A DNA stretch of 63,663 bases, filler included. It is 13 parts of 13 records of this genome, joined end to end, with 100 filler letters (N's around TTAATTAATTAA, not from the genome) between each part and the next. Parts side by side here need not be neighbours in the genome. Positions count along the whole stretch, not along the records: positions 44,004 to 50,159 come from SRR15195285_3825; 12 more parts are not named here. One strand, 5' to 3'. Shown piece by piece: positions 20,250 through 50,862 of this stretch. Under the pieces are notes generated by a model. That model had not been told where the DNA came from. It made no database searches and worked only from the letters and a program-made list of their open reading frames with translations. A program made the translations under genes and the position numbers. Every line of letters starts with the position of its first letter. Positions within the stretch are counted from its first letter, which is position 1.

Positions 20250-23200
20250 AGCCGAGTGTCGGGCGGCCATTGAGGCGGACACGAAAACTGTCCCTGAGCT
20301 GGAGCCGGAGCCCGAGCGGGAACCTTGGCCGGATCTTTGGCGTTACCAGGACTCAGGTGACGCCCATGCCGCTGCGACGCGCATCCAGTCTGTGGCTCGA
20401 GGTGCAAGATCGCGCCATCAGCTGATCATGGACATGTTTGATGACCAGCGGTATAACAAGTTGGAGGTGATGATATCTGAAGCTGACATACAGCGTGCAG
20501 TCGCTGTGCTCGGCGAGATTGGAATTTTTGCGGGTATGTCGGAAGCTGAACGCCACGATATTGCCAAAGCTCTTACGCTGGTGCGCTTTAGTGATGGCGA
20601 CGAGATTATCCAGCTGGGGGAGCTCGGTGATGCAATGTATTTCATCAGCGAGGGAGCCGTCCAGCAGATGCAGGACGGTGAGCGTATCATGACCGCTGAG
20701 AGAGGTGATGAAGGGTTCTTCGCAGAGATGGATCTGCTTGGTGGTGGGCGTCACGTGCAAGCCACAGTCGCTGTGGGTGAGACTGAGTGTTTCCGACTGT
20801 CTAAGGATGCCTTAGAGTCAATCGAGCTCGGGGACGATCATGGCTTCAAGGAGAGTCTGGAGCGTCATGCCTCTGCAGTTGTGATTACTCAGCACAGCAC
20901 CCATCACGATCGACGTCATCTCATCAGGGACAAGCTCACCCACCTGGAGCAAGAGCACGCTCAGAGCAACGGGGCTGGTGGGGCTGGAACCGTGGGGCAT
21001 GATGAAGAGGTCGATGCGGCCGCACTCCAGGTGCAACAGATGATGCTAGAGGCCCTGGGCATGACGGGCGAGGCGCTTTCAGAGGACGATAGTGATGGTG
21101 ACGATGAACATGAGCAGACAATGGTGTCTCCACGTGCGTCTGATGCTCTGCAGGTAGAGCTGCGCCATAGCTTCTTGGCATGGGTGCCGCTCTTCAAAGC
21201 GATGACCCCGGCTGAGCTAGATGAGATCGCAGATGCGATGGCGGAGGAAGAGTACGAGTACGAAGACATTGTCGAACAAGGCGACGAAGGTGACTCGCTC
21301 TTCGTGATCCGCAAAGGCACGGCCGTGGTTGAGAAGGATGGCGTAGATGTCGCGACGTACGGTCCGGGCGATTTCTTTGGCGAGCGCGCACTCATTAGTG
21401 GCGAGCCGCGTGGCGCCACTGTGCGCGCAGAGGGTGTTGTCCAGTGCATGCGACTCGGCCGGGAGCCGTTCAAGGAGCTGATGGGCGAGTGTGCTCATGT
21501 GGCGGCGCTGTTCGAGGAGAGCAAGCGCAGCTACGCTGTGGTTCAGATTCAGGCGATCGCGCGCGGATGGCTCGTTCGAGAACGGATTATGGCAGCGCAG
21601 TTTGACTCGGACGATGATAACGACGCGGGCCAGGTCGAGTTGGAAGCGGCTGGACTTGATGGCGACGCGTCAGCACAACCGAGCTCACAAACACGCGGTC
21701 GATGGGGACGAGTCCGCTTCCTGGAAAAAGTACCGCTCATGCAAGCGCTGACAAACACGGAGCTGCGCAAGGTGGCAGATGCGATGGCGACGGAGGAGTA
21801 CGAAGAGGAGGAAATAGTGGTGCAAGGGGAAGACGGCGACTCGCTCTACATCATCGAGAAGGGTCAGGCGGTGGTGGAGAAGGACGGTGTCGTCGTCGCC
21901 ACGTACGGCCCGGGCGAATATTTTGGCGAGATCTCACTCATGACAGGCGAGCCGCGCGGAGCCACAGTGCGCGCGACAGGCGCAGTCGCGTCTCTGCGGC
22001 TTGGCCAGAGTGCGTTCAAGGATTTGATGGGGCAGTGTGACCATGTGGCTGCGCTGTTCAATGAGCAGCAGAAGAAATACCGCCGAATCCAGTCGCGGTG
22101 GAGCAACATCAATGGGCAGACTGGTATATCAGCAAAGCCTACAATGGCGCCACACGCATATCGCGGTCGCCACCGGAGGGCTGTCGCCTCAGATGGGGAG
22201 ACGACAGCAGCAGGCAGTAGCATTCCCGAGAGCGTTCCTCCGGCTGGGCTGTCGATAGATTCAGCGGCGTCAAGCACCGGCTCACTTGATCACGTCCACA
22301 CTGGCGCTGGGAGTTCAGAACAGGAGCAGGAGCAGGAGCAAGGGCTCGAACTGTTCTCCGATGACGTTGTGTACTATCACGACGGCGGCATCGCAAAGAA
22401 GAAGGAGATTGCCGTGCTGTGGGACCATGTCGATGCTGACGGTAGCGGCAGCCTCGATCGTAGTGAGGTTCACACTGTTCTGGTGGAACTTGATCTCGAC
22501 GCCGAGGAGCAGGATGTCGAAGAGGCCATCGCTCAGCTTGACAGCGATGGCAATGGCGAGATCAGCTTCGAGGAGTTTGCAAGCTGGTATCTTACCTATG
22601 CGGACGAGAGTGCATCGCAGGCGACGACGACTGTAGCCAGCTTGACGCGACTAGCGGAAAGCGGCGATATTGACGACGAGACATATATGTGGACAGAGGC
22701 GCTCGGCGACGATTGGATGACCTACGCTGAAGCTAAGGCCCTACTGGGCGACCGCACATTTGACGGGCTCTCGACAAGGCCGAAGGGTGTCGGAGACGAC
22801 GATCAGCACAGCACCACTGAAGAAGCTGTATCAGAAGAAGGTGAACCTGCAGCAAGTGCACCAGCAACATCCATGGACGCTGCCAGCTCGTCTCGACTTG
22901 CCAGCACGGTAGAGCACACGGCGATTGTGCATTACCAAGATGGGGGTGCTTCGAGGATACAGGAGATCCAGGCCCTCTGGAACGAGGTGGATGTTGACCA
23001 AAGTGGCAACCTCGACCGAGATGAGGTACAGGCCGTGCTGACTAAACTTGATATTGCAGATACCGAGGTGGGTGTCGACGCAGCGATCGACACGTTGGAC
23101 AAGAACAAGGACGGCGAGATTGACTTCAACGAGTTTGTGAGCTGGTACCTCCAGTGGGAGAGTGACAGCGGCGGCACCGAACAACACACTGCACAGACCA

Positions 23201-23360
23201 CAGTCGGCGGTCTGCTGTGCGGTGGGCTGGTTGAGTCGGGCACCGTGTTGGACGAGACATACATTTGGGTGGACGGCCTCGGCGACGACTGGATGACGTA
23301 CGCTGACGCCAAGGAGCTGCTGCCGTCGGAAGCCGAGTGTCGGGCGGCCATTGAGGCGGA
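20250..23360. repeat. 30-nt terminal direct repeat AGCCGAGTGTCGGGCGGCCATTGAGGCGGA (20250-20279 and 23331-23360)
   Basis: Exact match between the contig's first and last 30 nt. Offset is 3081 nt. Confidence 0.95.
20251..23360 (+). CDS. Repeat unit of a cNMP/Ca2+ sensor protein: IQ-cNMP-cNMP-IQ-cNMP-(GYF_2 with EF pair)x2; open at both ends
   Basis: cNMP motifs GDAMYFI, GDSLFVI..FFGERAL..PRGATV and YFGEISL..PRGATV. IQ motifs IQSVARG and IQAIARG. EF loops DADGSGSLDRSE, DSDGNGEISFEE, DVDQSGNLDRDE, DKNKDGEIDFNE. Confidence 0.9.
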
Positions 23361-23687
23361 NNNNNNNNNNNNNNNNNNNNNNNNNNNNNNNNNNNNNNNN
23401 NNNNTTAATTAATTAANNNNNNNNNNNNNNNNNNNNNNNNNNNNNNNNNNNNNNNNNNNNGCCCTCTAACGGCCCCAACAGGGGCAGATCTAATCAGTTC
23501 TAACCCAGGTAGGGGCAGTTTGAGGGGTGGGGATCTAAAGGGTAGAAGTAGGAAAGGGATGGATCTGGCTGCGCCGGAACCACCCTTTTCCCTACTACTG
23601 ACGACGTGTACGCACGAACTCGTGCCTTAATAATTATAGCCGTTCAATTGGACACACCAGCTTAATGTAGCACTATCTCAACAAATG

Positions 23688-26600
23688 TCACATATCTTGG
23701 CAACATGCCACGCACAAGTCAAAATCACACCGGCGACATTCACGGCTTTGCTCGCCAGCACCAATTTTCGATCGGCAAACATCGCACGATATCGATGAGT
23801 GCTTTTTCACAGTCACCAGTCTCAGCCCATGGCCTCCAGGGCAGTTGATTGCGCCCTCGCCACTGTCGGCTGAAGACTCATCGCTCTCGTTGTCGCTGTC
23901 ATCGTATCCCTCTTCGCTGCAATGATCCTCTCCAAGCTCGTCAAGAAAGTCTGTGGGAATCGGTACCTCGTCGTCGCGCATTTGTGCAACCATGTCGAGC
24001 ACCGAGACGTCGTACGCGTTGCTGAGGGATGGGTCTGCACCACGCGCCAGCAACCGCTTGGCTGCATGGAAACTCTTTGAGCGCACTGCGATGTGAAGCG
24101 GCGTATCGCCCAGCACGCCCATGTTTAGTATCGGATGTACATCCAACACTCTTTCGACGCCGTCCATTCGGCGGTCAAAAACTTTGACGCCATGCGTGAC
24201 GCCACTTACATGGTCCCATTCATCCTTGCACACACTGAGCGTTTCCGTGTCGCCTTCCAAGCCGGAGATGATCCGTCGACTTGCTGCAAATGATGAGCTG
24301 TCTAAGCACACACGCAAGAGCGCAATAACTCTTTCACCGTCCAACTGCTTGTCGAGATCGTGCGCACATTCACTCGCCAACAAACGCTCGAGCATCGACA
24401 GGCCAACATCACAATTCATCGTGTTGCACGCAGACAGGAACAGAGCATGATTAGCGCCCGCGGAAAAGCAAGCGTTATCTGTGATCAGGAGTGACAAGCC
24501 TGGATGGAAGTGATTCACGCGCTCAACCAAAGCTGGAATCGACGGATCGGGCTCAAACTCAAACTGTAGATTGTCTGGTTTCCAACGTTGCAATCCGCAG
24601 ATGCAGTTGTTGCGTAAGTCCAATCTTGTTAGCTTGCTCGCTGAGGATGGTGTTATGGTCTCAGACGACACTGGCTCGGGATCAATTGGATGCGCATCAC
24701 GTGCGTCAATCACAAGTTTCGCCAAAGCAACGCCAGCTTCTGTGGCAGTACCAGTCTTGGAGAGTAGCTTTTGCAATCTTTCGGGGGTCAACTCCATCAA
24801 ATCTTCCCCATCTGTGCAGTTGTCTTGAAACGCAGCTCGCACGGAAGCCACGGAATTGGGAGGGAGCAGAATTGAGTCGACCCACTCCAAAATTTGCTGT
24901 GCAGTCCAATCTGTCATGCTTTGCGCAACTTCAGGCTCTGGCGTTGTGTTTGGCTCTTGAAAGTCACAGAGTGGTACAATTGACGGGTTGACAAATACCG
25001 TGTGACCGCCCCAATTGACGTCACAACATCCAGTGACGAGCGTTAGGTGTGTCACGCTACTGATGTCAACCTCGCATTGTTCTAATGAATACACGTCGTC
25101 GATTTTTTTCGACGTCCACAGCACATTCCCATCGCCAATAACTTCAAACATGAACCCACGAAGTACGTCCCTGACATCACCATTGACTGCCACGGACATT
25201 CGCAGCAATGAGTCGCGAAATCTTGAAGTGTCAAATGTAACAGACCCAGGTGCATGCAGTGAAATACTGCGATTGTACTGGGCCACATCGAGACGTTTGA
25301 TTTTGACCTTCTGATTTTCATAGCCTAGGTCTAGGTTGCGGCCAAGTGCTCCAAAAGTTGTGTCCACTGCCAACTCTGCTTCGTCAGCTAAATGCACAGG
25401 ACCCTTCGGTTGCACAGCTGGTGCGAAACCGTTCAAAAGGGCCTTAGCACCCGTTGGCCCAATGTCACAGTCCTGTAGAGAGAGCTCAGACAGCAGCTCA
25501 CAACACGGTAGGCCAGCAGCAATCACCACAGCTCCACGATTACCTAGAGGATTGAAGTCTAGATTAATGCTGGTCAAATGAGACCAGGTCCGTGCAACTA
25601 CACATGCGGTGGCAATCATGGTGTGATCATCGTCCAGTCTGCGTAGCTGCAGCGTCTGCGTTGTTGGTCTGATATATTGAAACCCATTGAACGTGAAGTT
25701 CGGCGCATCATGATTTTCAAGCAAATGAGCAAGAGAACCAAATTCCAGCAGATTTCCTCTCAAATCAAGACTTTCCAGGAGCTTGCACTGTTTTGCAGCC
25801 ATGCAAATCGCAACTGCAACACGCTGCGACATACGTGATTCACGCAGATCCACGAACTCTACATGAGCAGCGCTGGGCAGTGCGCGAGCAAAGTTCAAGC
25901 CTACAATGTCCGAGAATTCACCGTCGTCAGACTCTTTCATGAACTCTGTCCGTTTTAGATCGATCACGCGCAGCGTTTCGCAGAAATACCGGTGGCAACA
26001 CAGTGACGTAGCAAAAACAGCCGCAGAGATGGACGCTTCCCGCGCGTGTAGCTCAGCACGTTCGGTTTCTACCAAGTGTTTGACTTGCATGGTCGTCGAG
26101 TTAATATCTCCCCGTCCAGAAAATGTGACTGATGCCAACGAACAACTAAACTCGATGCAGTGTACGAGCGCATGGGCTTCGACCGTGGTGAGCATAAACC
26201 CAGCCAAATTGACGTCCACGATCTTATCTTGAAGCAATGCTACGACAGGTATCACACCGAGTTTACCGGGGGCCTCATGAAAGATAACGCTTGCTGTCAC
26301 TGCATCCATGCAGACCTGGTAGTCTTTACTAAACTTGTTCATTGCTCTCGGGTTGATTTCTTTTGTGGAAGCATCAGTGCTATCCATCAGAGTGAAAAGA
26401 GCTCGAGCACCGAAGAAATCGCAAAACTTGGCCAGTTGAGCGAAAGTCTCTTCATGCAACGCGCCATCTTTCATAGGAAGTCGGGACACAAGGGCAGTGA
26501 GGCCTGCATCAAGTTTGGAAGCATCTGAACTGTATCCCAGCCGCCGGAAGGCACGGACGAAAAATACCACTCCAGTGCGACCAACAATGTCGAGACCTAC

Positions 26601-29600
26601 AGAATCTACAATGCACTCAGCCTGACTGCGGCGATCTTTATCGCGTAGCAACTGTTGGTATGCTTGTTCCTTTCGAAACCAGACTGTATCTACTACATGT
26701 GAGCTGTCAAAGTCATCCATCTGTGCAACCATTTCAACAGTTCTCGCACAACCAACGTGCAAGCCATACCGATTGGTAGCTTGGTCACGCAGTGACGTAT
26801 GAGCAAATCGAAGAATGTGGTTGTCATCCCGCGACACGTACATTTCAAGGTGCGAGTACACTTCAGCGGGGAGCTGCTTCGACAAGAACCTGTGAAGCGT
26901 TTCGTCCACTCCATCATGGCATAGAAGCAAAGGCAGAAAGAATACTTCGGCATTATTATGTCCACATGTTGACTCCAGCGCACCGAGCAGACCAGCTGAG
27001 CCCACATCAACGTCATCCAAGCACTCGGCAATCAAATCAGCCACACGACCAGCTGCCGCGTCTCCCGGTACTTGATCCACAGCTTTTGATAATTTGTCTA
27101 GCGTTTTATCTGCTCTTGCAAAGTCGCGAGAATGCACAGAGTAGAAGAACTCGTCCCAGCAGCCTCTACGACTTCTTATCGTAGAGAAGTAATCAGCCAT
27201 CTCTACGTATAGCAGCTTTGCTCGAGCAGAATTTCGCAGCCGGTATCGTGCCTTACATTCGGCTGCCAGCTGATCGTGGAAGAACTGCAGCAGGCCGAAG
27301 CCGCCACCAGCCGTCAAAAACACACCAAGTGCTTCACGGATCCGGCTGAAGCTGCTGATCTGATCCTGTTTCCACGCGTGAGCCTCGCAAAGATCGTGCA
27401 TCGCTGCTGAAGATAGTCCACTCCTAGACAGAACAATTGCGGACAGACAAAATTCCACTAGCTCTGCACCATGGTCTTGCTCCAGTGTCGACAAGAGGTG
27501 ACGGAACAGGGTTCGAGCTGTGCCCGGGAGTGTGTGCGTCATGAAAGTCGTTAGGTTTTCGTAGATGCCGTATCGTCGAAGCTGTTCGCACGCAGCCACC
27601 AAAAATAAAGGGGATGAAGCCTGTTCCATGTCCAATAGTATGCCCATCTGATCACCTAAGAGAGCGTCCTCTGGGTCTTCACACAGCTCTTTGTGGTATA
27701 CACCAAGGCATTTCTTGACAAGTTGTCTACAATGCTCATAGTCTAGAGGTGTGACTTCCAACTCTTGACGATTCAGTCGTGAGAGCCTTCTGCGTAAACT
27801 TTGAAGGCAATTGCGCTCATACTCTAGCATACTAACCACAACTTTCACTCCTCGTGGCAGCCGTTTTGGTAACCAACGCATACTCCATGCATCTCCCACC
27901 CTTCGCAGCTGGTTGACTGCATCAATCACAATGATAACAGGTTTGCCACTGTGCTCGAAAACTTGTCTGGCCAAGATTGCCCAGAGCGACGACAATTCAG
28001 CAGTAGTCAACGCCTCACTGAAGTGTTCACCGGCCGGAAGCAAAAATGCCAGCTCTGAGCAGAGCCGGAGAAGCATGAACCGCAGATTGACTGATGTAGG
28101 TGAGCTGCCCACAACGTGATAAATTACTTGCTGATGTTTGTCAACAAGCTGACGAATGAACGTTGCCATCAGTGCACTCTTTCCACAGCCAGGCTTGCCA
28201 TGAACAGCCAGCAACCCGCGTGGATTCTGTAGGCTGCAGAACGACTGCATCTTGTCGAGCAAGGAGTTTCGACCAAAGAGCATCCGGCTCCTATCTTCAA
28301 CTGCGAGTAAATGAGGCAGTTGTTCAGCTTTTCGGCCATCTGGCTGCGACAGGGGTTTGTATTCGCGTTGTATCATTTCCTTCAGCTTGTTCAGTACCAG
28401 GCTCTCGAATCGCTTTTTGCACGCATCCTGTTTCATGGTGCGACCATAACCTACCCTCGCGCCAGCTATTTGCTTGTCATAACCGGTTGCTCCATCTCCA
28501 GCGTAGTCTGCACAAATGACGTGGGAAGAAGCTCGCAACCCGTTGTCAATTTCGCCCTTATCGCGGATGATAGCAAGCACTGCGTCGTCGTTCTTGGCAA
28601 CCGTGTACAAGTGGCGTTGGCTGCTGAAAGCTGCCTCACTGATGGGCGATACGTGCTCACGCTCAAAGATCCAGCGCCACTCAGGGTCGACGTGTTTCTC
28701 AAATGCCGAGTCTCGGAAGAGACTGAGACAATGCGCAGGACCCGGAAAATCTGGTGGGTACTGCAGGCAGCCATGCAGAACTTCTATAGACGTAATAGGC
28801 AGCTGTAGGCCTTGGTCCTGTAGATGATTGATCCATTTGACACTTCCAGGCTCATCAAACCTGTCTGCTGAGTCTAGCTCGTCTTGAATTGATCCGATTC
28901 TAGAAGTCCGAAAACAGATCATCCAGGGTTTGCCCTCTCCGTTTGGTCGGCAATGGTTAATTAGGTTGACACAAGTCGCTTGAATTTTAACATCTTGCCC
29001 TCCTATACCCCATCGAAGATCTTCTACTTCAAACTTGATCCAATATGACTCACGCGCCAGCCACTCGTTGAGTTCCGGGATTACTTTCTTGATCACAATG
29101 TCTCGTTCCGAATGAGTATCAGTGAACGTGCTGCTCAAAAAAAGTCTAATGATCGTCCACCTCCCCGGCTCACGTATCGTTTTTGGGTCTGCAAGACTTC
29201 CACCAGCCTCAACATGCTGTGTGCCCATGGAGTCCCAGAGACGAGACACCCACCCAATCTTCCTGTCAACTATTGCAGACGCAATCGTGTGATCTGCTGC
29301 GTCTGGTTTCGTCAGTTTGTACTGAAACCACTGAGACTCGCGATGCGAGGATAAAGCAACACCCGTCCAACTTGATTCTTCCTCACCCAGTCCTGTAAGC
29401 TGGTTGCTGCTCACGGACGATGCTGATGACAAAGATGTCTGGAGCCCGTGACTCATTGCATTCCCATGGTCCTGATCTTCTGGTACTTTTATTGTGTGGA
29501 TCACTGGGGACGGTGCGCGAAGCTTTGCAATGATGGCTTGACAGTCGGCCAGCTGTTGCTGTACTGCAGCACATTCCTGGCATTCTTCTCCAAAGTCTTT

Positions 29601-31385
29601 CCTTTCAATTGGCGGTGTTGATGATGTCTTGTCCTGCGTTGCACTAGCCAACGCAACGTGGTGCTGCTTCAGCTGCCGTTCTTGGGAGACCCATGAGCCT
29701 CTGTTGATAGCGCGCAAGTCGTTCATACATCGTGCAAATGCCTCTTCATGTTTTGCAAGTTCGCGTGTATCCACCGGATCTACGCTGCTGAGTTGAAACC
29801 CAAGAGCTTTCGGAGGATACTCGCCACCGCACCACAGAGCCGTAATTGGCTTGCCTTTGTTATTGGCGTGATCAAATTCGCGTTTTGTCCACAAGCTGCC
29901 GAGCTTTTCGTCCGTCGTTGCATACGTGGGAGAGATAAGCGCGACAAAAAGCTTGCAGCCGTCGATGGCGGCGTTCAGCTCAGCAGTCCAGTCTCCACCC
30001 CCCTGCAGTTCGCTCTCGCCCACATATGCCACGACTCCTTCGTCTGCGAACTTCCGACGCAGCCACTGGACAAATGTCGCTGTCTCGGTGATTCGATAAG
30101 ACAAAAACACTTCTGCAACGCCAGATACTTGCTTTTCCATCAGGAAGAAGTTCAACCGCTCAACAAGCTCAGCCAACCAATCGTCCCTGCTGCGAGGGAT
30201 CCACCCTTCCCACCCACAACTCTCGCGTGCGTCGATGAACTGAGTGGTCGAGAGGACAATTGAAACGCCGCCACGCGGCGGATAACTGTCTCCAGCCAAA
30301 AATAGTGGGACAACGCACGGTGGGCTGCGAGTGCCTCTGCCCTTGCCTGCGACCGCGAAGCTGAATTGTTTGCTAGTGCTGCTACCCTGCCGTCCATACG
30401 CTGTGGCTGCATCTCCTGTTGAAACAACTGGTACTAAAATCTTGCACTTGCCAGACGTCTCAGATCCAAGCTCGCAATATGGGAGAGGAAGACCATGCCG
30501 GACGAGGTCAAAGGCAAGATCCCGAACAAACGCTGACGCCACCTGCTCGTAGCTGATGCATACACCGTCGAGCGTGTCTGTGAGCTGATGCCACTCAGGT
30601 TCCTTTTCAACCAGCTCCCAGTAGAAGCGAAAGTACTCTCGATCGTTGGTCTTGCAAGTAGCTCTCATGCCATCGACGATCGACGTCACCGTGAGCTCGA
30701 GTAGTATCCACTCCCGTGCTCGTGCTGGCTCCTTCAGCATTGCTTTTTGGCACGCTTCCACTACGTCGCCGTGAGCCTCTGCCTTCAGCGCTTCTTTGGC
30801 GGCCTGGAGATGCGGTATTGTGGAGATGATCCCATCAAGCACACTCAGAGCTTCGGCGTGGCCTCGATCCTCGGCAATCTGCCTCGCAGTACGCCCGTTG
30901 TTGTCACGCCTATCTCCACCACAGCCGGCTCGAACAAGCTCGATGATGCAGCTGGTTGCGCCGTGGTGGCATGCGACGTGCAACGCCGTGAAGCCGGATG
31001 GGTCGCAAGAGTCCACAGATGCGCCATGCTTCAGCAGCAACTGCAGTGCACGCGCATCAGTCCGCGTGGCTGCTGCATGAATCGGGCGGACGAGCGCTGC
31101 TTCAACGTCAGCACAGCCATCCGCACTAACCGTCTCGAGGCGAGCGACCATTCCTCCGACGTCACCACTCCAACTAGCCCGCAGCAGGGGATAGTCCACG
31201 TCGCTCTTCACTCGCGCGCCGACGCTCTTGCGAGCCACTCTCGCAGCTATCCCTTCATCTTCCGTCCCACGCCCTGGCATAACTTGCATGCGTGCCAGAT
31301 GCACACAGTGTAAACGCAAATCAATCAATGTACAGTGGAGCCGTAGCCTCCTGTCCCTGCCCCGCGCCCACCTTCCCACACTCAA
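23688..31385 (-). CDS. NLR/STAND-like giant protein: Ank-TIR-DUF4062-NACHT-WHx2-LRR[NPCBM,SAM]-Ank-Zn finger (true start probably a Met near 31290)
   Basis: Ank GFTALHVAC. TIR VFLSYR..LISPTY..WTKREF. DUF4062 IRLFLSSTFTDTHSERD..DLRWGI. P-loop GKPGCGKS. Walker B IVIDAVNQ. LRR LSELSLQDCDIGPTGAKAL. C-terminal CDVC..CRRCDFDLC. Confidence 0.88.
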   Translation of the reverse strand: MSVGRWARGRDRRLRLHCTLIDLRLHCVHLARMQVMPGRGTEDEGIAARVARKSVGARVKSDVDYPLLRASWSGDVGGMVARLETVSADGCADVEAALVRPIHAAATRTDARALQLLLKHGASVDSCDPSGFTALHVACHHGATSCIIELVRAGCGGDRRDNNGRTARQIAEDRGHAEALSVLDGIISTIPHLQAAKEALKAEAHGDVVEACQKAMLKEPARAREWILLELTVTSIVDGMRATCKTNDREYFRFYWELVEKEPEWHQLTDTLDGVCISYEQVASAFVRDLAFDLVRHGLPLPYCELGSETSGKCKILVPVVSTGDAATAYGRQGSSTSKQFSFAVAGKGRGTRSPPCVVPLFLAGDSYPPRGGVSIVLSTTQFIDARESCGWEGWIPRSRDDWLAELVERLNFFLMEKQVSGVAEVFLSYRITETATFVQWLRRKFADEGVVAYVGESELQGGGDWTAELNAAIDGCKLFVALISPTYATTDEKLGSLWTKREFDHANNKGKPITALWCGGEYPPKALGFQLSSVDPVDTRELAKHEEAFARCMNDLRAINRGSWVSQERQLKQHHVALASATQDKTSSTPPIERKDFGEECQECAAVQQQLADCQAIIAKLRAPSPVIHTIKVPEDQDHGNAMSHGLQTSLSSASSVSSNQLTGLGEEESSWTGVALSSHRESQWFQYKLTKPDAADHTIASAIVDRKIGWVSRLWDSMGTQHVEAGGSLADPKTIREPGRWTIIRLFLSSTFTDTHSERDIVIKKVIPELNEWLARESYWIKFEVEDLRWGIGGQDVKIQATCVNLINHCRPNGEGKPWMICFRTSRIGSIQDELDSADRFDEPGSVKWINHLQDQGLQLPITSIEVLHGCLQYPPDFPGPAHCLSLFRDSAFEKHVDPEWRWIFEREHVSPISEAAFSSQRHLYTVAKNDDAVLAIIRDKGEIDNGLRASSHVICADYAGDGATGYDKQIAGARVGYGRTMKQDACKKRFESLVLNKLKEMIQREYKPLSQPDGRKAEQLPHLLAVEDRSRMLFGRNSLLDKMQSFCSLQNPRGLLAVHGKPGCGKSALMATFIRQLVDKHQQVIYHVVGSSPTSVNLRFMLLRLCSELAFLLPAGEHFSEALTTAELSSLWAILARQVFEHSGKPVIIVIDAVNQLRRVGDAWSMRWLPKRLPRGVKVVVSMLEYERNCLQSLRRRLSRLNRQELEVTPLDYEHCRQLVKKCLGVYHKELCEDPEDALLGDQMGILLDMEQASSPLFLVAACEQLRRYGIYENLTTFMTHTLPGTARTLFRHLLSTLEQDHGAELVEFCLSAIVLSRSGLSSAAMHDLCEAHAWKQDQISSFSRIREALGVFLTAGGGFGLLQFFHDQLAAECKARYRLRNSARAKLLYVEMADYFSTIRSRRGCWDEFFYSVHSRDFARADKTLDKLSKAVDQVPGDAAAGRVADLIAECLDDVDVGSAGLLGALESTCGHNNAEVFFLPLLLCHDGVDETLHRFLSKQLPAEVYSHLEMYVSRDDNHILRFAHTSLRDQATNRYGLHVGCARTVEMVAQMDDFDSSHVVDTVWFRKEQAYQQLLRDKDRRSQAECIVDSVGLDIVGRTGVVFFVRAFRRLGYSSDASKLDAGLTALVSRLPMKDGALHEETFAQLAKFCDFFGARALFTLMDSTDASTKEINPRAMNKFSKDYQVCMDAVTASVIFHEAPGKLGVIPVVALLQDKIVDVNLAGFMLTTVEAHALVHCIEFSCSLASVTFSGRGDINSTTMQVKHLVETERAELHAREASISAAVFATSLCCHRYFCETLRVIDLKRTEFMKESDDGEFSDIVGLNFARALPSAAHVEFVDLRESRMSQRVAVAICMAAKQCKLLESLDLRGNLLEFGSLAHLLENHDAPNFTFNGFQYIRPTTQTLQLRRLDDDHTMIATACVVARTWSHLTSINLDFNPLGNRGAVVIAAGLPCCELLSELSLQDCDIGPTGAKALLNGFAPAVQPKGPVHLADEAELAVDTTFGALGRNLDLGYENQKVKIKRLDVAQYNRSISLHAPGSVTFDTSRFRDSLLRMSVAVNGDVRDVLRGFMFEVIGDGNVLWTSKKIDDVYSLEQCEVDISSVTHLTLVTGCCDVNWGGHTVFVNPSIVPLCDFQEPNTTPEPEVAQSMTDWTAQQILEWVDSILLPPNSVASVRAAFQDNCTDGEDLMELTPERLQKLLSKTGTATEAGVALAKLVIDARDAHPIDPEPVSSETITPSSASKLTRLDLRNNCICGLQRWKPDNLQFEFEPDPSIPALVERVNHFHPGLSLLITDNACFSAGANHALFLSACNTMNCDVGLSMLERLLASECAHDLDKQLDGERVIALLRVCLDSSSFAASRRIISGLEGDTETLSVCKDEWDHVSGVTHGVKVFDRRMDGVERVLDVHPILNMGVLGDTPLHIAVRSKSFHAAKRLLARGADPSLSNAYDVSVLDMVAQMRDDEVPIPTDFLDELGEDHCSEEGYDDSDNESDESSADSGEGAINCPGGHGLRLVTVKKHSSISCDVCRSKIGAGEQSRECRRCDFDLCVACCQDM

Positions 31386-31733
31386 CTGTGCCCGCTGCGA
31401 TGCGCCGGCCTTGACCTATGATAAAGCGCTAGTGGCTAACGCAGACCCGGCGGAGTCGGCGGCGCAACGTTGAGGGGTCGGACCGTCTCCCCGCTTTAAC
31501 ACGTCCCCCCCGCACACCGACACGCACACGAAGTGCGTGCTCAGGACGACCGACGTCGACGCCAATCGCCGCGGCGCACCCTGAGTCAACGTCTGTCACA
31601 AGGACTCGTACAATCATATTGTACCGAATTCNNNNNNNNNNNNNNNNNNNNNNNNNNNNNNNNNNNNNNNNNNNNTTAATTAATTAANNNNNNNNNNNNN
31701 NNNNNNNNNNNNNNNNNNNNNNNNNNNNNNNGG

Positions 31734-36082: not shown

Positions 36083-36182
36083 NNNNNNNNNNNNNNNNNN
36101 NNNNNNNNNNNNNNNNNNNNNNNNNNTTAATTAATTAANNNNNNNNNNNNNNNNNNNNNNNNNNNNNNNNNNNNNNNNNNNN

Positions 36183-38854
36183 GCGCCTCTCGCAAGTTGT
36201 CCGGCTTTGCACCCGCCGTTCCGATATCAACATACCCGTAGGTCCGCAGCAGATCCTGTATTACGAATAGCCCATACAAGCAGAACATACAGTAGCCGAG
36301 CGTCTTCGTCATTTTCCAGCCGCTGCAATGGATGCTTGTGATAACCACGAATATCATCATCAACAGGAGGAGGAGCGAGAAGAAGAGCGTTGGTGCCTCT
36401 ACTCCTACGTACCCCGGGGTGACGTCGTTGACAAGTGCATAGATGAGCCACGGCAACGGCAGCCCGACGAGAACATCGAAAATGTTGGACCCGATTGAGG
36501 ATGACACAGCCATGTCACCATGGCCTTGTCTCGCAACGACTACACTCGTGAGCAGGTCGGGCACGCTGGTGCCAGCTGCCAAAAATGTTAGTCCCATGAC
36601 TGCATCCGGAATCCCAGCAACGCAACCGATCTTCGTTGCCCAGTCTACCATGAAGGCACTGAAAATGCCCACCCAAGCAATCGCCAGCACGAACGAGGCC
36701 GGGTACCAATCTTCCCAGTTGATACCACCGGGGGGATGAAATAGTTGGTCCGGGCCCACGCCTTCAGGAACCACACACCTGACTGGAGTACCACGCAGAT
36801 GTTTTGGGCGCTCCACTTGTGCATCGACTGTATCGCCACCCTTTTTGTCGCTGGGGCAGCGCACTTGTGCGGGCAGTCGCCGCACATCAGGGATCGTGCA
36901 CATCATGGCCAAGTTTATCGGGGCCATACACACCCAGAGGACTGTGGCCAAAGGATATTTGCCTGGCTGGGCCGGGGGGCTGATGGAAAACGGCGGGTTG
37001 TCAACCACTTCTGCTTGTAGCTCAACCCACGCAGTGAAGTATTCAGAGCTGTTGTACCAGTCGAGGAACTCGTTCAGCGAGATTCTCCCGTCATGATTTC
37101 CTGAGTCGTCAATCGCTGCCATTTCCTGCCACAAATCATCAACGTCCGAGTCCGAGGGAACTTTTCCCTTTCCGGATTTAAGAAGCTGTGTGACCTCATT
37201 TTTGTCCAGGTACCCACTGAGATCAGCGTCAATTTCGTTGAACTTTTCAATCACCTGTTCTCGGATTCGCTCCGCACTTTCGCCGTACCATTCCCTAAAT
37301 TCAATCAGTGAAATCTTGTCCGGCAAATGGTTGTCCCAGTTCTTCACCTTTTTTTTAACCTCTATGAATACATCCTCGACTTCAGCAAGAGTTATTTCCC
37401 TTGAGTCACCAGCTTGCTGCCGTAGCTGAGAGATTACCTCTTTGATTTCCTCAGCGTCGAGGTAGCCGTTCGAGTCTTTGTCAACCTCCTGAAATGTTTG
37501 GTCCACGTTGCCCGGGACGTGCGAGACTAAATGCAACTCTGCTTGCTCGGCAACGGTACGATCTTCCATCAACATTGACCACAAACCTGCACGGTACGCC
37601 GAGGTGTGGTACAGGGAGTCATTGCCCGTGATATCGGCATTTCGGTGGAGAGTATGAGCTTTGACCTCTGTCTCCATCGCATCGGACTCCCGCGTCGGGT
37701 TGGCTGTCTCTTCTACCGTCGGTACTTTTTTCCTCATTGCTATCGCGTCCAGTTTCTCGGCTAGTGTTCGGTTGAACGCCATGATGAGAATATATCCGAA
37801 GTACCTGTTGCGTTGCGTCGGTACAGTACTGGGCTAAGAAGCTGGCTGCAACGCAGACAAAGGGAAAACGATGCGGGGCAACGCACATTAAAAAAAGTAT
37901 GGCTGCTTCCCAAGTATGTATGGCAGCGCAATCTTGTGGCTTGGCTCGGTCTTCATCGTCCTTCCAATAGCAAAAGTTACCAAACTTCACCCATGCGTCA
38001 CTTTCGCTTGTAGGTTTCATCTCGACTCTACCGAAGAAGAGTGCTAGCGCCAACAGGGATAAGCAATAGTACGAGCAATCTCGAGCCAGCGGCCACCACG
38101 TCAGGTGAAGATCTTCCTGCGGCGCGACACGCAAGAACGCTCGGATCACGCGCAAGGTGATCAGCAGGGTGATGCACACTCAAGCAAAAGGGGCTCACCT
38201 CCGACGCGACTGCGCAAGTGCCGATGACGAACAGCACGTTGAAAACGGCAGATCCTACAATGGTCCCGAAACCTACTGCGCTTTGCTCAAATGTTCCGAT
38301 GAAGGAGGTAAATAGCTCAGGTGCAGAGCCGCCTGCAGCCATCAGTGTCGCGCCGGCGATGTCTGGATCAATTTCCCACCGTTTTACGATGACCTCAAGG
38401 GCTGTGAGCAAGAACAACAACACGCCGCCAGCATTTCAGGACTGGGCGCAGTAGCTCAGAAGTACGTGAGTACCTTACCTGGGACGAAGAACTCATCGCA
38501 CACGACGGACAGCGACAGAAACATCATCAGCACGCCAAACACGTACAGGCCAATCACAGGGCCCTTCAGTGTGACCCAGGAGATCATGTTCTCGCCGTCG
38601 CAGTCTGCCGCTCTGTAGTCAATCTCACACTGCTCGAGACCGGACTCTTCCCGAATCGCTTGCAAGCACGCTGATACCGTCTCATTTGTCGTGTTTGTCC
38701 CGCCAGTTTGCAGCTGCCGATACGCTGGCTCGATAGCGGAAGCAGGGCTGCCCTCAGACGTCGTCACAGCTAATGCATCGCACGTGTGGTGTAGCTGGGG
38801 GAGGAGGAATAGTACGAAGACCCACGCGCGGGGTCCGCATTCGCTGGGCCTCAT
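36183..38854 (-). CDS. K+-dependent Na+/Ca2+ exchanger (NCKX/SLC24-like) with EF-hands in the cytosolic loop; 3'-partial
   Basis: Alpha-1 [17 protein letters not shown] and [10 protein letters not shown]. Alpha-2 [13 protein letters not shown] and [12 protein letters not shown]. Introns 38478-38402, 38198-38117 and about 37886-37805. Confidence 0.93.
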
Positions 38855-43832: not shown

Positions 43833-43903
43833 CCATGAGCCATGAGCCATGAGCCATGAGCCATGGTCCATGGTCCATGATCCATGATCCATGATCCATG
43901 ATC
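43833..43903. repeat. 7-mer minisatellite (CCATGAG)4(CCATGGT)2(CCATGAT)4
   Basis: Read directly. It terminates the contig and probably lies inside the AKR intron. Confidence 0.95.
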
Positions 43904-44098
43904 NNNNNNNNNNNNNNNNNNNNNNNNNNNNNNNNNNNNNNNNNNNNTTAATTAATTAANNNNNNNNNNNNNNNNNNNNNNNNNNNNNNNNNNNNNNNNN
44001 NNNCCCCCCCCCCCCCCCCCCCCCCCCCGCGCGAGAGTTTGCGTACGTGTTGTATCGCCTAACATCGTGGATACGTGGCCACTGAAGGAACGCCGCCT

Positions 44099-47000
44099 AT
44101 GGCTAGATCACCTGGTGCGCTGGGAGTCGGCAGTCCGAGCGCTTCCAGACGCTCTGGCACCCCACCCGTGGCACGGCCGAGCCCTCGTGCATCAGCAGAC
44201 ATAACGTGGGCCGCAGAGGGGTCGGCAGACCAAGTCACAGCAGCCACGCAAGCTGCGACGACGGTGGGCCCGTCGTCGGAGCTCGCATGCCAGGAGCAGG
44301 ATGCTCTGCTATCAGAAGGCACACACCGGCCCGACGGTCGGGCAAGCGGCACAACACCTACAGGGCTGTTGCGACAAACAAGCTGGACTGGCGACCGCAA
44401 GGCAAAGCTCATTACACTCGCCACAATAGCGCGTACACGGGAAGCCGAGGCGACGGAGCGGGACCACATGGGACGGGCTGTACAGATGTTCGAAGAGCTG
44501 GACGAGGACCACAATGGCACACTCGATAAGGCCGAACTCGCGCGTCTCGCCCACAAGCTCAACCACCGTTGGTCTGCACTAGAGCTCGCCCAGCACTTTG
44601 ACCGCCTCGCGGCAATGGAACGCGAGTATCGACGGTCGGTTCACGATAGCGCTGGGCTTGCCGGTGGGTTTGTACCGGAAATATCTGCTCCGTTGAGCCG
44701 AGAGCAAGTGCGTATTGCTCATGGACGTGGGACAGCATCGTCACACCACAAAGCGCCTTGGTACGTCTTTGTTCCAAGGTTGCACAGACTTGGAGCGAGT
44801 CCAGCAAAGCAGCACCGCGAGCAGCTGCGCAGAGATTACGCGGATATGGATCTCAAAGACATTAAAGAGCAGGCCAAGGTTTGGGGTGTCGATGCTGGGA
44901 AACTCGTGGAACTAGAGAAACTCGAGGGCGATCTGAGCGATGCAAACGCCAAGGACACCGTTATCGCTCTGATTTCCGAGGTCCACGTAACCAAACAACT
45001 TTTCGACATTTCCTTTCTAAAGCCTTTTCAAAAGGAACGATGTCCGATGGATCGAACGGACCAGGGTGGTGGCATATCATTGACACGACGGGAGGTCGAA
45101 CTCATTTGGGAGGGGTACCAAAGCAGGGTCGACCCTGACGAGAGGCGCATCACGGAGATCCAGCAGCCCGTGTTTCTCAGCTGGTGGAAAGGCTATAGGC
45201 GGCGAATGCAGCGCGAAGTGCTCGGGTATGCAAAGAAGATGTTTGTTAAACATAGCCACATAGAAGCAGAACAAAGGCCTTTTCAAAGTGGGACGCTTGT
45301 TGGACGCGTTCAGAAATCTAGTATGAAGTTGATGGACACCATTCGTGTGATGTCGGCGAACGAGATGAAGAGCGTTGGCAAACGCATCAATAAGACCTTC
45401 GATTGGTTTGAGCGCGACACGGGCTGCAAATTCGAGGATAAGGATTTCCAGGAGGCAAGAGAATTGACAGGATCTGAGAATTGCAGGGTTGACAAGGCGT
45501 TGTCATTCGACGAATTTGCACACTATATCAGAAAGAAATTGGGCAGTGACGAGGTCGGCAATGCGCTTTTGCCGGAATTCATGGTGCAACAGATCGATGA
45601 CAACGTGCCAACTACTGACAAATTCGGTCTTGCCGCTACCAAAGCCCACCGGTCGGTCAAATCGATATTGCAGCGTCAAAAGTCCTACCGAAACATGATG
45701 TCAGCAAGAGGAACACTGCAAGCAGCCCGTGCCAAATACAAGCAATACAGCACCGATGAAAATCGCAGGGCGATCGCGACAGCACTGTGGGCTTTCCTCA
45801 AGCCAAGACTCGAAATGCTGGTGCGTTTCGAAGCAGTGTGGGGCAGCGTGCACGACTTGTATCCACACAACTTTGAGTCAGATTATACAGATGTGGATAT
45901 TGTGCCTCGCCATATCAGGCACCCAGATTCCCGAGTTTCGATCGGATGGGATTTGCTTCAGGTCATAGCACTGATGTACGTAGCTGCCTTGGTGCCTTTG
46001 CGCATTGGCTTCAATTACGAGCCGCAGCCTCCCTCTGCAGATGGACTCAAACCGCTGGGAGAGTTGGGATGGTGGTCCGACTTGGTGATCGACCTGTATT
46101 TCATCACCGATATCTTTGTTCAGTTTCACACCGCGTTCGTTGACACGGCCACAGGACTCCTGATTACGGACCGAAAGATCATCTCGCAAGGGTACATACG
46201 TTCTTGGTTCATCCTTGACATCGTGAGCGTGATGCCGTTTTCATATCTCCAGCTGCTTTCAGATGCGCAACCAGCCACAGGGCAACCGCCCCTCGTGTCT
46301 AGTTACTTGGCACAAGGGCTCGACACTGATGAAGGCACAGGCGGTAAACTTGAAGATAATACCAAGATTCTCAAGTTGTTACGGTTTCTTCGCATTGCGA
46401 AGCTCCTGCGGCTAACGAAGTTCAAGGGTATGATGGCGCGGTATGACGACAAGTTTGACGTGAGCCAATACGTTAGCAGCACGGCAACCTTGGTCATGAT
46501 CGGGTGGGCGGCACACTTTCTCAGCTGCTTGTGGTACGCAGTAGGGACAGGAAGGAGCCATATCGACGGCTGGGTTACTAACTCTGAGACAGGACTGCTG
46601 TGGGAGATAGAGGACCAGGTCACACTCGGGACTCGCTACATAGCATCCATGCACAGCATCTTAAATGCACAGTGGGCTTTCACAAACTCTGAGAAGATCT
46701 TTTCGGTTTTCGGCGAGCTCGTCATGGGCTTAATCTACGGTGCTCTCGCTGGATTGATGTCCTCAATTATGATGAGCACCAAGCTTGCGGAACAAGAGAA
46801 AACGCTGAAGTTCCAATCTATCAAAGCCTGGATGAAATCAAGAGAACTATCCCGAACAATGCAGGCTAAAATCATGAGCCACTATCATAACAAGTACAAG
46901 ACTCGCGCAGTGTTCGACGAGGACCAGGTGAGATGCTGTGCGATGCAAAGTTTGCGATACCAGCGGACACGATCATTCAATTCTAACCAGTATTCTACAG

Positions 47001-48228
47001 GGCGTCTACCAGGCGTGGTTCTGTTTGGTCTGCATCAACCGTGTGTATCGAGCAACGCTTAGAGCAGTGTCTACCACTGATGCTATTGGCTGTTGGGTTG
47101 TGATTGACAGATAATGGCTGAACTCCCAACTATACTGTCCGATCGGTATTCCTTTCAAAGCAGAACGCAATCAAGTGGAAACCATTGATTAATCAGGACC
47201 GAGTTGACCTTCACAGTGCCTTTAATACTGACCAAAGCCTGGTGTTCAAACAGGGTGTCGTTGTCATTGTTCAACCACTGTATCGTCAAGATTCCATTCT
47301 TTCGTGGATTGGGCGAACAAACCCGAATGATGCTCTGCCGACTGGTCAGCACCGTAAACGTGCCGAAGAACGGCGAGGTACGACCATTTCTGGTTAGGCA
47401 CTCATCTAGTGTACCTCGTGTTGTTTATCCATCAGCATTTTCACTTCTTCTGTGGATGCCCTGAACAGATTTTCAACGAAGGTGACAATAGTACCGAAAT
47501 GTACTTCATCATCCAAGGTGAGGTGGAGGTCGAAACTTTTGCCGGTTCATCGCTTGGGTTCTTGACCGAGGGTGCGTTCTTTGGAGAAACTGCGCTGATC
47601 CAGGCCGTCACCGGAAAGGTAGACGAAACTTGGCAGCGGACACGCTCAGTCAGGTATGTTATAGCCTCACCGTCACCACCACTGTCGGTAGGCACATGGT
47701 TGATTGGAAACAACGCGTCTTCTAGGCAGCTGTACACTGAGCGTGGAGCCATTGCGTGCAAATGATGCATCGAGCAGAGCTACCGTCGACACAATGCTGG
47801 GCGAGCTACGTACGGAAGATATGGACGAGATCTTGGAGAAATGCCCAGGTCTGAAACTCAAGATGATGCAGTTTCTGAAGATTGGAAAGAAAACAGGTGT
47901 GCCAACAGCTGATATGGTAGTGCCAGTAGCGTGTCTGGAATGCAACCACAATAGGCTGGCAATAGGCAATCTCTGATCTTGTGTTTGGCTGGTGCTGTTT
48001 CGGCTGCCAGCTGGCAAGAAGCTGCACACAAACTCTGCAGCTATGAAAGCAGCTCATGCGTTTAAAGTGCAAGCTTCCCACAAAAGCCAATCAGTGAATG
48101 TGGAGGCAACGCTCCAAGAGCAAGCGGAACAATTGCAGAATCTGCAGAAGTCGATGAGGGAGATGAAGAATGATCAGGAAGAGCTGCTCAGCATGCTGCG
48201 TGGTTTCATGAGCCAGTCTTCTTCTTAG
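44099..48228 (+). CDS. Six-TM cyclic-nucleotide-binding-domain channel (HCN/KCNH-like) with N-terminal EF-hand
   Basis: IRHPDSRVSIGWD (S1), S4 KILKLLRFLRIAKLLRL, C-linker, CNBD EMYFIIQGEVEV..GAFFGETAL..RTRSVRA, EF loop DEDHNGTLDKAE. Five GT-AG introns after 46927. Confidence 0.88.
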
Positions 48229-48384
48229 TCTGGCTTTGAGCGCTAGTAGTAGTCGCTCCCACGGGTGTACATTGTTCATTGTACATGTGCGCAGTAGACT
48301 GCACTGTTTCCGTGGAGCAATTAGGATCGGGTGTGCGTGACGGATCCCAGAGGCTCCGTAGTGGCAGATCCTGGAATACATGCA

Positions 48385-50051
48385 TTACAACGAGCCAGCA
48401 AGTTCCCACGCCAGAGACTCTAACTTGTCGCCCGTCTCTTGCATTGCTTTCAGCGTCGCGTTGGTCGTGCCCTTGCCAGGAGTTCCATTTGTGAAGATTA
48501 TGACGCCTGCTTTGAGGGCTGGCGAGTCTGCAGACGTCGTACAAAGCGCGTGACATGCGCACATGTAGTCCAAGGAAAGTAAGCACATCCCCAAAGCTGT
48601 CAATCTTCAGCGCACCCCAGAGACACTGGGACATAAGTACGAATGAAAATAACTGCAGCGCGAGGGTTCCCGAGCTACTGGCAGAAAGGCTCACATTTCA
48701 TGGTTGTGGACACGCCTGGGTCGCCACCACCATGACCAAATCGAACGTCTGTGGCTGGGTCATTTGATGATGCAGCATTGGCTCCAGTCTCGGTTTCCCC
48801 TGCAGCAACCGAGGCAGCACACATCAGACGGCTCTCGAGAGTGAGGGTGACAGGGGAGGTCTCTCGGTGTAGCTTACAGAAAAGCCCGTACTGGCTGCTG
48901 GCATGTGGGTAGTGCTGCTTGCGCATCATCTGCACACTCTCAGGCGACAGCAACCGCACTCCACTCACTGGGTGTGTGCCGTCATTCATGAACGTTAGCA
49001 AATGCTGGGCAAGGTCTTGTACGGTCGTCCGCAGGAAACCGTCTGAAACGGTCGGACATCCGTAGAAGCCGTGTGGTTTGTAATAGCCGCCAGTACCAGC
49101 ACTGCCTGAAAATGTTGTCCAACTGTACGGCATCGCGACGCGGTTGCTGCGCACAATCCGGAAACAAAAGTGCGCGACGTTAAGTAACTACGCCTGGGAG
49201 ATTGGAACCCAGTCACACAGAAGCGGGGGTTTGGCTCTAGTGCGCAGTGTTGCTGAGCGTAAGTGATGGACTCACAGATCGACACCTTTGGATTGCAGTC
49301 CAGCCCACAAGAAGGAAGAGGACTGCATTCCAAGTGGTTGCAGCACATTTTGCTCAGCAAAATCAGCAAACAGCATACCAGAAGCAGCCTCGACAAGATA
49401 GCCAACTAGCCCCGCGCCAACGTTCGAGTAATCGAAGGCAGCACCTGGTGCATGCTCTGTGTAGATATCGTCTGAGCGTAGGCTACCACTGAAGTACTCG
49501 CGGCAGAAATCTGCGAGCGACCACTGTGAATCCCCAGCAGTGTAGCTGTCCTCGTATACGGAGCTATCGTGCACGGACGACGTGTGGGACATCAGCATGC
49601 GAAGCGTGACTGGCGTGTCAGGAAATCGCGGATTGTGGACCCCGAAGCCACCATGCGTGGCAGTAAGACCCGAGACGTCGTCGTCCAGCTGCAGCAGACC
49701 GCGCTCGACGCACATCATGGCACACACGCCCGTCACCGTCTTGCTTATGCTAGCAATCTGGAAAATGCTGTCGCCTTGCACGGGCCAGCCGCGCTCCACA
49801 CGACGCGTACCGTACTCAGCCTGGCACAGGATCGTGCCATCAGCTTTCACTACTCCAACCGCCACCGCTGGAACATGCTCAGTGTGGGCACGGATCGCAG
49901 CGTCGAGCTGAGCCTTCACCGCAGCGGCCGTGTGCGCGCCGGGGGTACGCCGGTCGCACGCAGCAGCCTGCTGATGCGGGGCGACGTGCCGCTCCAGTCG
50001 CGTCAACATCCTCTCGGGCCTTCGCCTCATCGGCATGGCGCGTGGAACCAT
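48385..50051 (-). CDS. Serine beta-lactamase-like (class C/esterase) hydrolase (4 exons)
   Basis: SxxK motif IASISKT, LMSHTSS, FDYSN, HGGGDPG, and terminal GVIIFTN after splicing. Confidence 0.88.
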
Positions 50052-50862
50052 GCTCTAGAGATCAATAGTAGCATATATGCATCGCGGCGCACCCCGCGCG
50101 CCCCTGTGAGTCGCGGGGGCCGGGGACCACAGCGATACAGCTGTACTGGCCGACGTGATNNNNNNNNNNNNNNNNNNNNNNNNNNNNNNNNNNNNNNNNN
50201 NNNTTAATTAATTAANNNNNNNNNNNNNNNNNNNNNNNNNNNNNNNNNNNNNNNNNNNNCAGCAGCGGCGGCGGCGGCGGCGGCGGCGGGCAGCGGGTGG
50301 TTCATAGTATCATGTAGTCCAATAATACCTCAGCCAGCTCATCCCCTCCTCCCCCCCAACCACCACAGCCAGCAGCCCCTGCCTGCTCCACCCGGCAGCG
50401 CCCCCAGCGCCCTCCGCCCGCCGGTTGTAGGTTAGGGTGCCACCACGGCTGTATCTCCGATGGTGTATGCCGAAGTGCGTGCCCAGCCCAGCCGCTCCGT
50501 CAGCGCCACGCCGCGCGCGTACCGCTGTGTACAGTACACAGTGTATAATCTAATACACACTGTGATACACGTGCCCGGCACCGATGTACCCGCGTACAGT
50601 ATATTATACTGTGAATACGGTAGTCCCCAGTACCGAATTCGACGACGTACTGATCAGTATACCGGTGTACGCTTCATTCTCCAGTCCTGCATTGAATACA
50701 CCGCGGATACTGTACAGTCGGTTCCTGCCACCTGCCTGCAGGTGCCTCGAGCCTGGTTCGACTGGTACTCAGGTACTGTGGTACTCTGGTACTGAGGGTG
50801 GCTGCACCGCGCCTCAGGCTGTGGACTGGCGTTGGGGTGGATGCCTGCGTTGGCCAAGGCCG

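Follow-up and report, generated by a model that had tools for sequence, protein, structure and literature searches.

The 63,663-nucleotide stretch of DNA analyzed here (filler included; hereafter the window) carries a gene for a protein belonging to the cyclic nucleotide-binding domain (CNBD) channel superfamily in which the K+-type selectivity filter is missing and the pore loop is shortened. All six close relatives share this deletion, which comparison of their sequences shows to be both real and old. The gene falls within a large clade of short-loop proteins, so far from environmental or uncultured marine sequences, that is apparently undescribed within the literature searched. We consider that the protein would act as one subunit of a tetrameric channel, given its likeness to solved relatives, and the reading we favor, to which we give an even chance, is that it forms a conducting central cation pore that is not selective for K+ and is gated by voltage, cyclic nucleotide monophosphates (cNMP), and Ca2+.

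We used the 343 residues encoded from 45899 to 46927 as the query of a phmmer search against all Protein Data Bank (PDB) chains, where the nearest matches were hERG (E 3e-16) and HCN1 (E 4e-14), together with EAG1, AKT1, and CNG channels. In the alignment with hERG, the query is gapped by 7 and 1 residues precisely where hERG carries its filter. When all fetched proteins were aligned locally with phmmer, the pore-helix Tyr and the S6 Glu stood 19 residues apart in the query versus 27 in 72 of the 116 rows bearing a Gly-Tyr-Gly (GYG) filter, the remaining 44 rows being only partly aligned there. The query loop is thus 8 residues shorter than that of K+-type relatives; the initial annotation had correctly reported a shortening and had overestimated it at about 10. 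Its placement of the loss within one continuous exon at 46600..46760 was borne out, given that the 27-residue peptide it cited is encoded at 46631-46711 (+) inside one long exon. So was the absence of T-V-G-Y-G-D, which is evident from both the hERG gap and the residue spacing, and the query loop contains no G-Y/F-G. The K+-channel signature T-x-G-Y/F-G is present in 116 of 178 relative rows and absent from the query and from 58 short-loop rows.

The short loop has a conserved sequence of its own. W259, A260, F261, T262, and E265 are invariant in the query and five relatives, and in a family alignment of 69 sequences, E265 is found in all 69 and T262 is at least 90% conserved. The majority loop motif of the family is N-A-L-E/D-x-G-x-T. 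At the position aligned with residue 258, most family members have E/D, and the query has Gln. A short-loop relative at 37% identity (L002:1380-1751) carries a different loop sequence again, indicating that the loop varies between subclades.

The initial annotation had raised the question of whether homologues share the deletion under purifying selection or instead retain the filter. All six relatives at 53-99% identity, which come from separate assemblies, share it, and none retains the filter. Five of them, from NCBI and ENA assemblies and with further cluster members from JGI and EukProt, have the loop length of the query (P0002, 99% identity; P0003, 85%; P0004, 71%; P0005, 61%; P0006, 59%). 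The sixth (P0048, on the JGI metagenome contig L001; 53-59%) has its own short-loop pore with that loop length as well, followed by the same order of C-linker and CNBD exons, with intron positions that differ in part from those of the window. Since separately assembled relatives share the deletion, chance or assembly error is excluded as its source. Between the window and L001, the nonsynonymous (dN) and synonymous (dS) rates over 328 codons were 0.36 and 2.2, a ratio of about 0.16 that is rough because dS is saturated; over the 29 codons of the pore helix, loop, and start of S6, they were 0.43 and 2.9. These codon comparisons point to purifying selection on the gene.

A wider search of representative sequences returned 8563 hits at E <= 0.001, of which we examined the best 150. 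The pore was covered in 130 of these; copies identical to the window protein were set aside before the count, as were rows in which the two anchor columns were missing. Taking a loop as short when the pore-helix Tyr and the S6 Glu are 19-21 residues apart and G-Y/F-G is absent, we counted 55 short-loop, 72 GYG, and 3 other sequences among these 130. The short-loop representatives make up at least 55 clusters at 50% identity. In a maximum-likelihood tree of 83 rows and 312 columns, from which the P-loop columns were removed and which included no animal HCN or HCNL sequence, the query lies within an all-short clade of 23 rows (support of 99 by the Shimodaira-Hasegawa-like approximate likelihood ratio test), and the six close relatives group at a support of 100. 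The nearest rows to the query are environmental protist-like sequences. We scanned 31 non-GYG relatives, 28 of them short-loop, and detected a CNBD in 19 and N-terminal EF-hands in 13, both counts being lower bounds because many of the scanned open reading frames (ORFs) are truncated. The ESM Atlas returned generic Ion_trans clusters only, one of which, commonest in Haptophyta, scored 0.91, and it was not used. Two short-loop paralogues with an acidic loop (P0165 and P0033) share their source label with the EukProt record to which the LETM1 gene of the window is identical at 100%, which suggests that the organism probably has at least three members of the family. The LETM1 gene itself, on a separate piece of the window, has red algae (41-43%) and fungi (37-41%) as its best named relatives.

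Apart from the loop, the parts expected of a CNBD channel are in place. The initial annotation described the S4 charges and the CNBD as intact, and we found both to be so: S4 has seven K/R residues at every third position, and these positions are at least 90% K/R both in the 58 short-loop rows and in 160 other rows. Pfam cNMP_binding (PF00027) matches exon 4 alone at 47469-47655 with an E value of 4.9e-10. The full CNBD assignment depends on the inferred exon model, whose exons align with the CNBDs of P0017, P0027, P0025, and P0024. The EF-hand proposed for the N terminus was also recovered, at a score beneath the Pfam threshold (EF-hand_1, E 6e-5, 22.7 bits versus a cutoff of 25.4; EF-hand_7, E 3.8e-5, 24.4 bits versus 30). 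By eye, its 12-residue loop has Asp, Asp, Asn, Asp, and Glu at positions 1, 3, 5, 9, and 12, which are canonical ligand positions, and the EF-hands of relatives can far exceed the cutoff (e.g., EF-hand_7 at 65 bits in P0037). A Pfam scan detected no PAS or HCN domain at the N terminus of the query. To the eye, the C-terminal tail seems helical and coiled-coil-like, and it could be an assembly domain.

Structure prediction with AlphaFold2, using the 69-sequence family alignment, gave a mean predicted local distance difference test (pLDDT) score of 85.4 and a predicted template modeling score of 0.78, with pLDDT values of 92-95 for the blocks around the loop. The model comprises S1-S4, a 5-residue break, S5, the pore helix (243-256), the loop (257-262), and S6 from residue 263, whose helix continues as the first C-linker helix to residue 314. 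The break, between helices 151-183 and 189-216, is of the non-swapped type; an S4-S5 linker under ten residues with non-swapped architecture is the mark of CNBD channels in the sections available of the 2020 survey of eukaryotic CNBD channels (PMC7576140). Within S6, I279, G281, and A284 are at least 90% conserved among the 69 family sequences. Foldseek matched the model to HCN1 in the PDB (E 8.2e-13, query-normalized template modeling score of 0.65) and also to HCN4, Eag1, AKT1, GORK, hERG, and CNG, with 167 matches at E <= 0.001.

We further modeled four copies of residues 180-343, which scored 0.54 versus 0.00 for the best of 3 controls, with at least 59% contact agreement between runs and a partner pLDDT of at least 59. 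Among proteins solved as same-chain pairs, 21 of 30 attained the mark used for this comparison, versus 0 of 23 among those solved as single chains (17 of 29 versus 0 of 30 for eukaryotes, and only 1 of 7 without an older solved relative), and it was calibrated on two copies, whereas the query was modeled as four. As K+ channel tetramers do, the model shows contacts from the pore helix to the neighboring S6 and from S6 to S6. At the axis, the four copies come together through residues 284 and 288, while residues 257, 258, and 260 of the loop touch neighboring copies. Given that HCN and KCNH tetramers were already solved, we take this model as a likeness and no proof of assembly.

Table 1. Features of the channel gene in the window. 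Feature coordinates are arithmetic from residue numbers (for S1 to S6, residue 1 = 45899); the last column gives mean pairwise identity among five orthologues.
Feature	Position	Strand	Basis or remark	Mean pairwise identity
Channel gene, complete coding region	44099..48228	+	six inferred exons, 1169 amino acids	
Exon 1	44099-46927	+	inferred	
Exon 2	47111-47145	+	inferred	
Exon 3	47254-47377	+	inferred	
Exon 4	47469-47653	+	inferred	
Exon 5	47778-47896	+	inferred	
Exon 6	48011-48228 (stop 48226-48228)	+	inferred	
N terminus				0.28
EF-hand (residues 141-165 of P0001)	44483..44557	+	Pfam, sub-threshold	
S1-S3 of voltage sensor (helices 12-38, 56-75, 92-122)	45932..46264	+	AlphaFold2; Pfam Ion_trans E 3.7e-10	
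S1				0.76
S2				0.78
S3-S4 loop				0.30
S4 voltage sensor (residues 154-182)	46358..46444	+	seven K/R, every third position	0.87 (most conserved segment)
S5 (residues 189-216)	46463..46546	+	AlphaFold2; ~5-residue break from S4	
Pore helix (residues 243-256)	46625..46666	+	AlphaFold2, block pLDDT 94 and 92	
Six-residue loop (residues 257-262)	46667..46684	+	relatives have ~14 residues, including T-V-G-Y-G-D, here	
Pore helix and loop				0.59
S6 (residues 263 to about 295)	46685..46783	+	AlphaFold2 helix 263-314	0.76
C-linker end and CNBD	47254..47896	+	exons 3-5; introns 47378-47468, 47654-47777	
C-terminal tail, exon 6	48011..48228	+	translation	

The coding region was assembled from an open frame of 999 codons (44063-47062) that holds exon 1, across which 943 codons are open, and from five downstream exons in frame. 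All five inferred introns are GT..AG, and the exons join in frame to a single terminal stop. The spliced translation is colinear through the C-linker and CNBD with the single-ORF relatives P0017, P0027, P0019, P0025, and P0024, the alignments of the spliced protein having E values of 1.7e-114 for P0017, 1.1e-106 for P0027, and 1.6e-108 for P0019. The ATG at 44099 agrees with the N terminus of P0002. It lies only 95 bases inside the start of the contig, which makes it uncertain where the gene really begins at its 5' side. Coding read-through past exon 1 was considered and ruled out, since the stops differ in place among relatives and in L001 come four codons on. About ten codons past the exon 1 donor (46928-46990) are alike in relatives down to 61% identity (P0003, P0004, P0005, and P0048), and a second GT at 46990 would join exon 3 in frame, omitting exon 2; the conserved segment might serve as an alternative donor or else belong to an intron element under conservation. 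The corresponding locus in the metagenome contig (L001:596-2204) has an additional intron within S1 and is without the intron between exons 2 and 3 of the window, so that intron positions have shifted inside the subclade while the coding parts were retained.

We compared the gene with contigs of four public runs, one taken by guess to be DNA and three RNA. Contigs of poly-A or oligo-dT libraries lie on exon 1 at 45236-45386, 45469-45619, and 45742-45957, and one of an oligo-dT RNA library lies on the last exon at 48047-48260; the presence of a contig does not prove transcription. The contigs of RNA library X12 continue colinearly across intron 1 (46796-47016) and intron 2 (47135-47377) as well as two boundaries further on, and could therefore derive from DNA or from unspliced RNA.

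The overall plan of the protein is that of the KCNH (EAG/ERG), HCN, and plant Shaker-type (AKT1, KAT1, and GORK) channels, with six transmembrane helices that include a charged S4, only a short break between S4 and S5, and the pore helix, S6, C-linker, and CNBD beyond it. It differs from them in the 8-residue shortening with no G-Y/F-G and in its putative N-terminal EF-hand, and its identity to them is only about 20%. Among the matches listed, the nearest GYG-bearing relatives are protist two-repeat (tandem) channels of the P0007 and P0008 type, a group treated in the sections of PMC7576140 available. P0007 aligns with the query at E 6e-62 and 29% identity, has EF-hands, and shares the S4 pattern of the query. 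However, the tandem channels carry T-V-G-Y-G-D in both repeats, whereas the query has a single repeat and is filter-less; 10 tandem-channel rows in our tree have A, G, or S ahead of V/I-G-Y-G.

Other CNBD channels have abandoned K+ selectivity, among them the animal CNG channels, with their T-I-G-E filter, and the plant CNGC. An acidic side-chain ring serves as the key filter element in animal CNG channels, and by analogy the E/D found at the aligned place in most short-loop members may play a similar part. The query has Gln rather than Glu there, and its loop is shorter than the T-I-G-E-T-P-P-P type given for the animal CNG filter in the consulted portion of PMC7576140. The short-loop clade is a separate branch from both CNG and CNGC and has N-terminal EF-hands; matches of plant CNGC chains in the PDB to the query span S2-S3 only. 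The loops of CNG and CNGC channels are longer. Strong deviations from T-V-G-Y/F-G are described as rare and confined to single channels in the main text of the 2020 survey (PMC7576140), where animal CNG is the only exceptional clade named, plant CNGC is mentioned in the discussion, and no short-loop clade is reported. A check of terms in PMC11085791 gave nothing on short-loop channels, and we found no description of shortened-loop CNBD channels in the full-text literature, subscription journals lying outside this scope.

The initial annotation listed a non-selective pore, a non-conducting pore, a regulatory subunit, and HCNL1-like conduction without settling on any of these, and it did not recognize the gene as part of a large short-loop clade. 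It also drew an analogy with zebrafish HCNL1, which is likewise a CNBD-family protein without the canonical filter motif, and in that respect the analogy stands. In HCNL1, according to the parts of PMC7306766 available, the loop keeps its length while its string is not conserved between species, the S4 Arg series is broken by Met at the third position, and conduction runs via the voltage-sensor domain. The query differs in having a loop that is shortened yet conserved and an S4 that is uninterrupted, and these two features disfavor an HCNL1-like route.

We favor a working central pore that is not selective for K+ given that the chassis is intact and under selection, the loop is constrained, and the clade is widely diversified. 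In such a pore, the K+-type filter strand would be replaced throughout the clade by a minimal loop, so that only six residues join the pore helix to S6. In each subunit, one or two residues would then line the tightest point of the central pore with their side chains, namely Gln258 and Trp259 in the query and the Glu/Asp of N-A-L-E/D in most relatives, in place of the T-V-G-Y-G stack of backbone carbonyls. Classical K+ selection would be impossible in a constriction of this kind, and the acidic ring of the majority would allow non-selective conduction or Ca2+ permeability; the query pore may have a lower affinity for divalent ions, since Gln replaces the acidic residue of the family. Opening would be driven by the seven-charge S4, and it would be tuned both by cyclic nucleotide, acting at the C-terminal CNBD, and by Ca2+, acting at the putative N-terminal EF-hand.

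Several points weigh against this proposal. That ions pass through the center is purely something we infer, six residues may be too few for any filter, and Trp259 could plug the center. At residue 258, the acidic position of the family, the query subclade varies among Q, E, R, S, and G, which fits a relaxed role or one outside permeation. The pore helix and loop (0.59) are less conserved than S4 and S6 and lie near the mean of the transmembrane region (0.63). The query EF-hand falls under the Pfam cutoff, and the phosphate-binding cassette of its CNBD seems, in our own reading, to be longer than that of HCN2 by an insert of about 8 residues. The result of the tetramer model may reflect memory of solved HCN and KCNH tetramers. 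There are, in addition, no splice joints among the contigs of the four public runs, and these contigs leave the loop uncovered (46592-46678 in X1 and 46534-46795 in X12).

The last two observations, together with the passage of RNA-library contigs through the inferred introns and the fact that the window is a chain of short contigs, would be expected if the gene were an artifact or decaying, that is, an assembly deletion or a pseudogene that has lost its filter. We find this hardly credible, given that the same loop occurs in relatives from NCBI, ENA, JGI, and EukProt and in the metagenome contig L001, that exon 1 is open and followed by five further exons in frame, that dN/dS is low, and that the clade has diversified into so many clusters. 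It is a more serious, if unlikely, alternative that the central pore is dead and that the protein acts via its voltage-sensor domain, which would pass a proton or omega current in the manner of HCNL1, or does no more than sense voltage, cNMP, and Ca2+ while coupled elsewhere. In favor of this, the protein lacks the canonical filter, no part of it is more conserved than S4, the acidic position of the family is variable in the query subclade, and in the sections of PMC7306766 available, HCNL1 offers the precedent of a CNBD-family protein without pore conduction that passes H+ through its voltage-sensor domain. However, the hallmarks of HCNL1, its Met-interrupted S4 and unconserved loop string, are absent here, K/R stands at all seven S4 positions in the query and at least 90% of the time in the 58 short-loop rows, and W259-T262 are invariant in the query and five relatives. 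S6, with the residues that come together at the modeled axis, is conserved too, although a conserved S6 could equally serve assembly alone.

A different use of the same protein would be as a modulatory subunit, non-conducting as a homotetramer, that co-assembles with acidic-loop paralogues or GYG channels and tunes their selectivity or gating. Acidic-type paralogues (P0165 and P0033) probably coexist with the query in one organism, and the query subclade has lost the acidic residue at a position that now varies. The CNG B subunits of animals, which differ at the filter Glu, offer a parallel. The shared source label may, however, stand for a co-assembly of more than one cell, and the subclade retains an invariant loop of its own along with a full S4, CNBD, and C-terminal tail. 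The homotetramer model also outscored its controls, subject to the caveats of solved relatives and two-copy calibration given above. Taking these together, we judge a modulatory role unlikely, and a conducting central pore without K+ selectivity is the reading that we carry forward.

The window consists of 13 separate contigs, and the genes around the channel should be read accordingly. Twelve identical spacers of the form N...TTAATTAATTAA...N, each a run of N, a 12-base linker with stops in all frames, and a second run of N, lie between the pieces at 3541, 7014, 16712, 20194, 23405, 31676, 36127, 39459, 43948, 50204, 56272, and 60443, and several ORFs stop precisely at a spacer. Gene order across a spacer is therefore no synteny, and synteny of the channel with Ca2+ or cNMP genes elsewhere in the window was ruled out because the contigs are merely strung together. 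The piece that holds the channel gene runs from about 44004 to about 50160. The contig ends flanking the spacer before it show an 8-base tandem repeat at 43860-43903 and a run of about 25 C at 44004-44029. The sole true neighbor of the channel gene, on the same piece, is a gene of the beta-lactamase (serine hydrolase) family at 48675-50054 (-; Pfam E 5.4e-39), which is convergent with it, the 3' ends being about 450 bases apart.

Other pieces carry further genes of note. A 1068-residue ORF at 20206-23412 (+) lacks a channel domain and has three domains of the cyclic-nucleotide-binding kind (Pfam E 7e-50) together with several pairs of EF-hands, and its domain content marks it as a probable further cNMP/Ca2+ integrator in the data set. 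At 36127-37833 (-), a Na+/Ca2+ exchanger domain (E 2.4e-32) is fused to N-terminal EF-hands. The 2575-residue ORF at 23688-31415 (-) combines ankyrin repeats, TIR, a NACHT/AAA ATPase, LRR, and NPCBM, which by its domains would be an architecture of the signal transduction ATPase with numerous domains (STAND) type, resembling those of innate immunity, in a protist.

In summary, our study describes a clade of CNBD channels in which the K+-type filter has given way to a short loop. CNBD channels are textbook models of how the filter sets ion selectivity, and this clade shows either that a pore can be built even with a loop this much shorter or that the voltage-sensor and CNBD chassis has been reused for another purpose. 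We raise, tentatively and at less than an even chance, the possibility that the clade represents a new pore architecture in the voltage-gated cation channel superfamily, one in which a re-entrant pore helix leads into a loop of six to eight residues that makes a working filter. In that architecture, a single ring of side chains, mostly E/D and here Q beside an aromatic residue, would have a selectivity of its own, for example, for Ca2+ or H+. If this is true, channels that have never been recorded electrically would integrate voltage, cyclic nucleotide, and Ca2+ and would be widespread in marine protists. The finding bears on the coupling of voltage, cNMP, and Ca2+ signals in marine protists that are abundant and uncultured.

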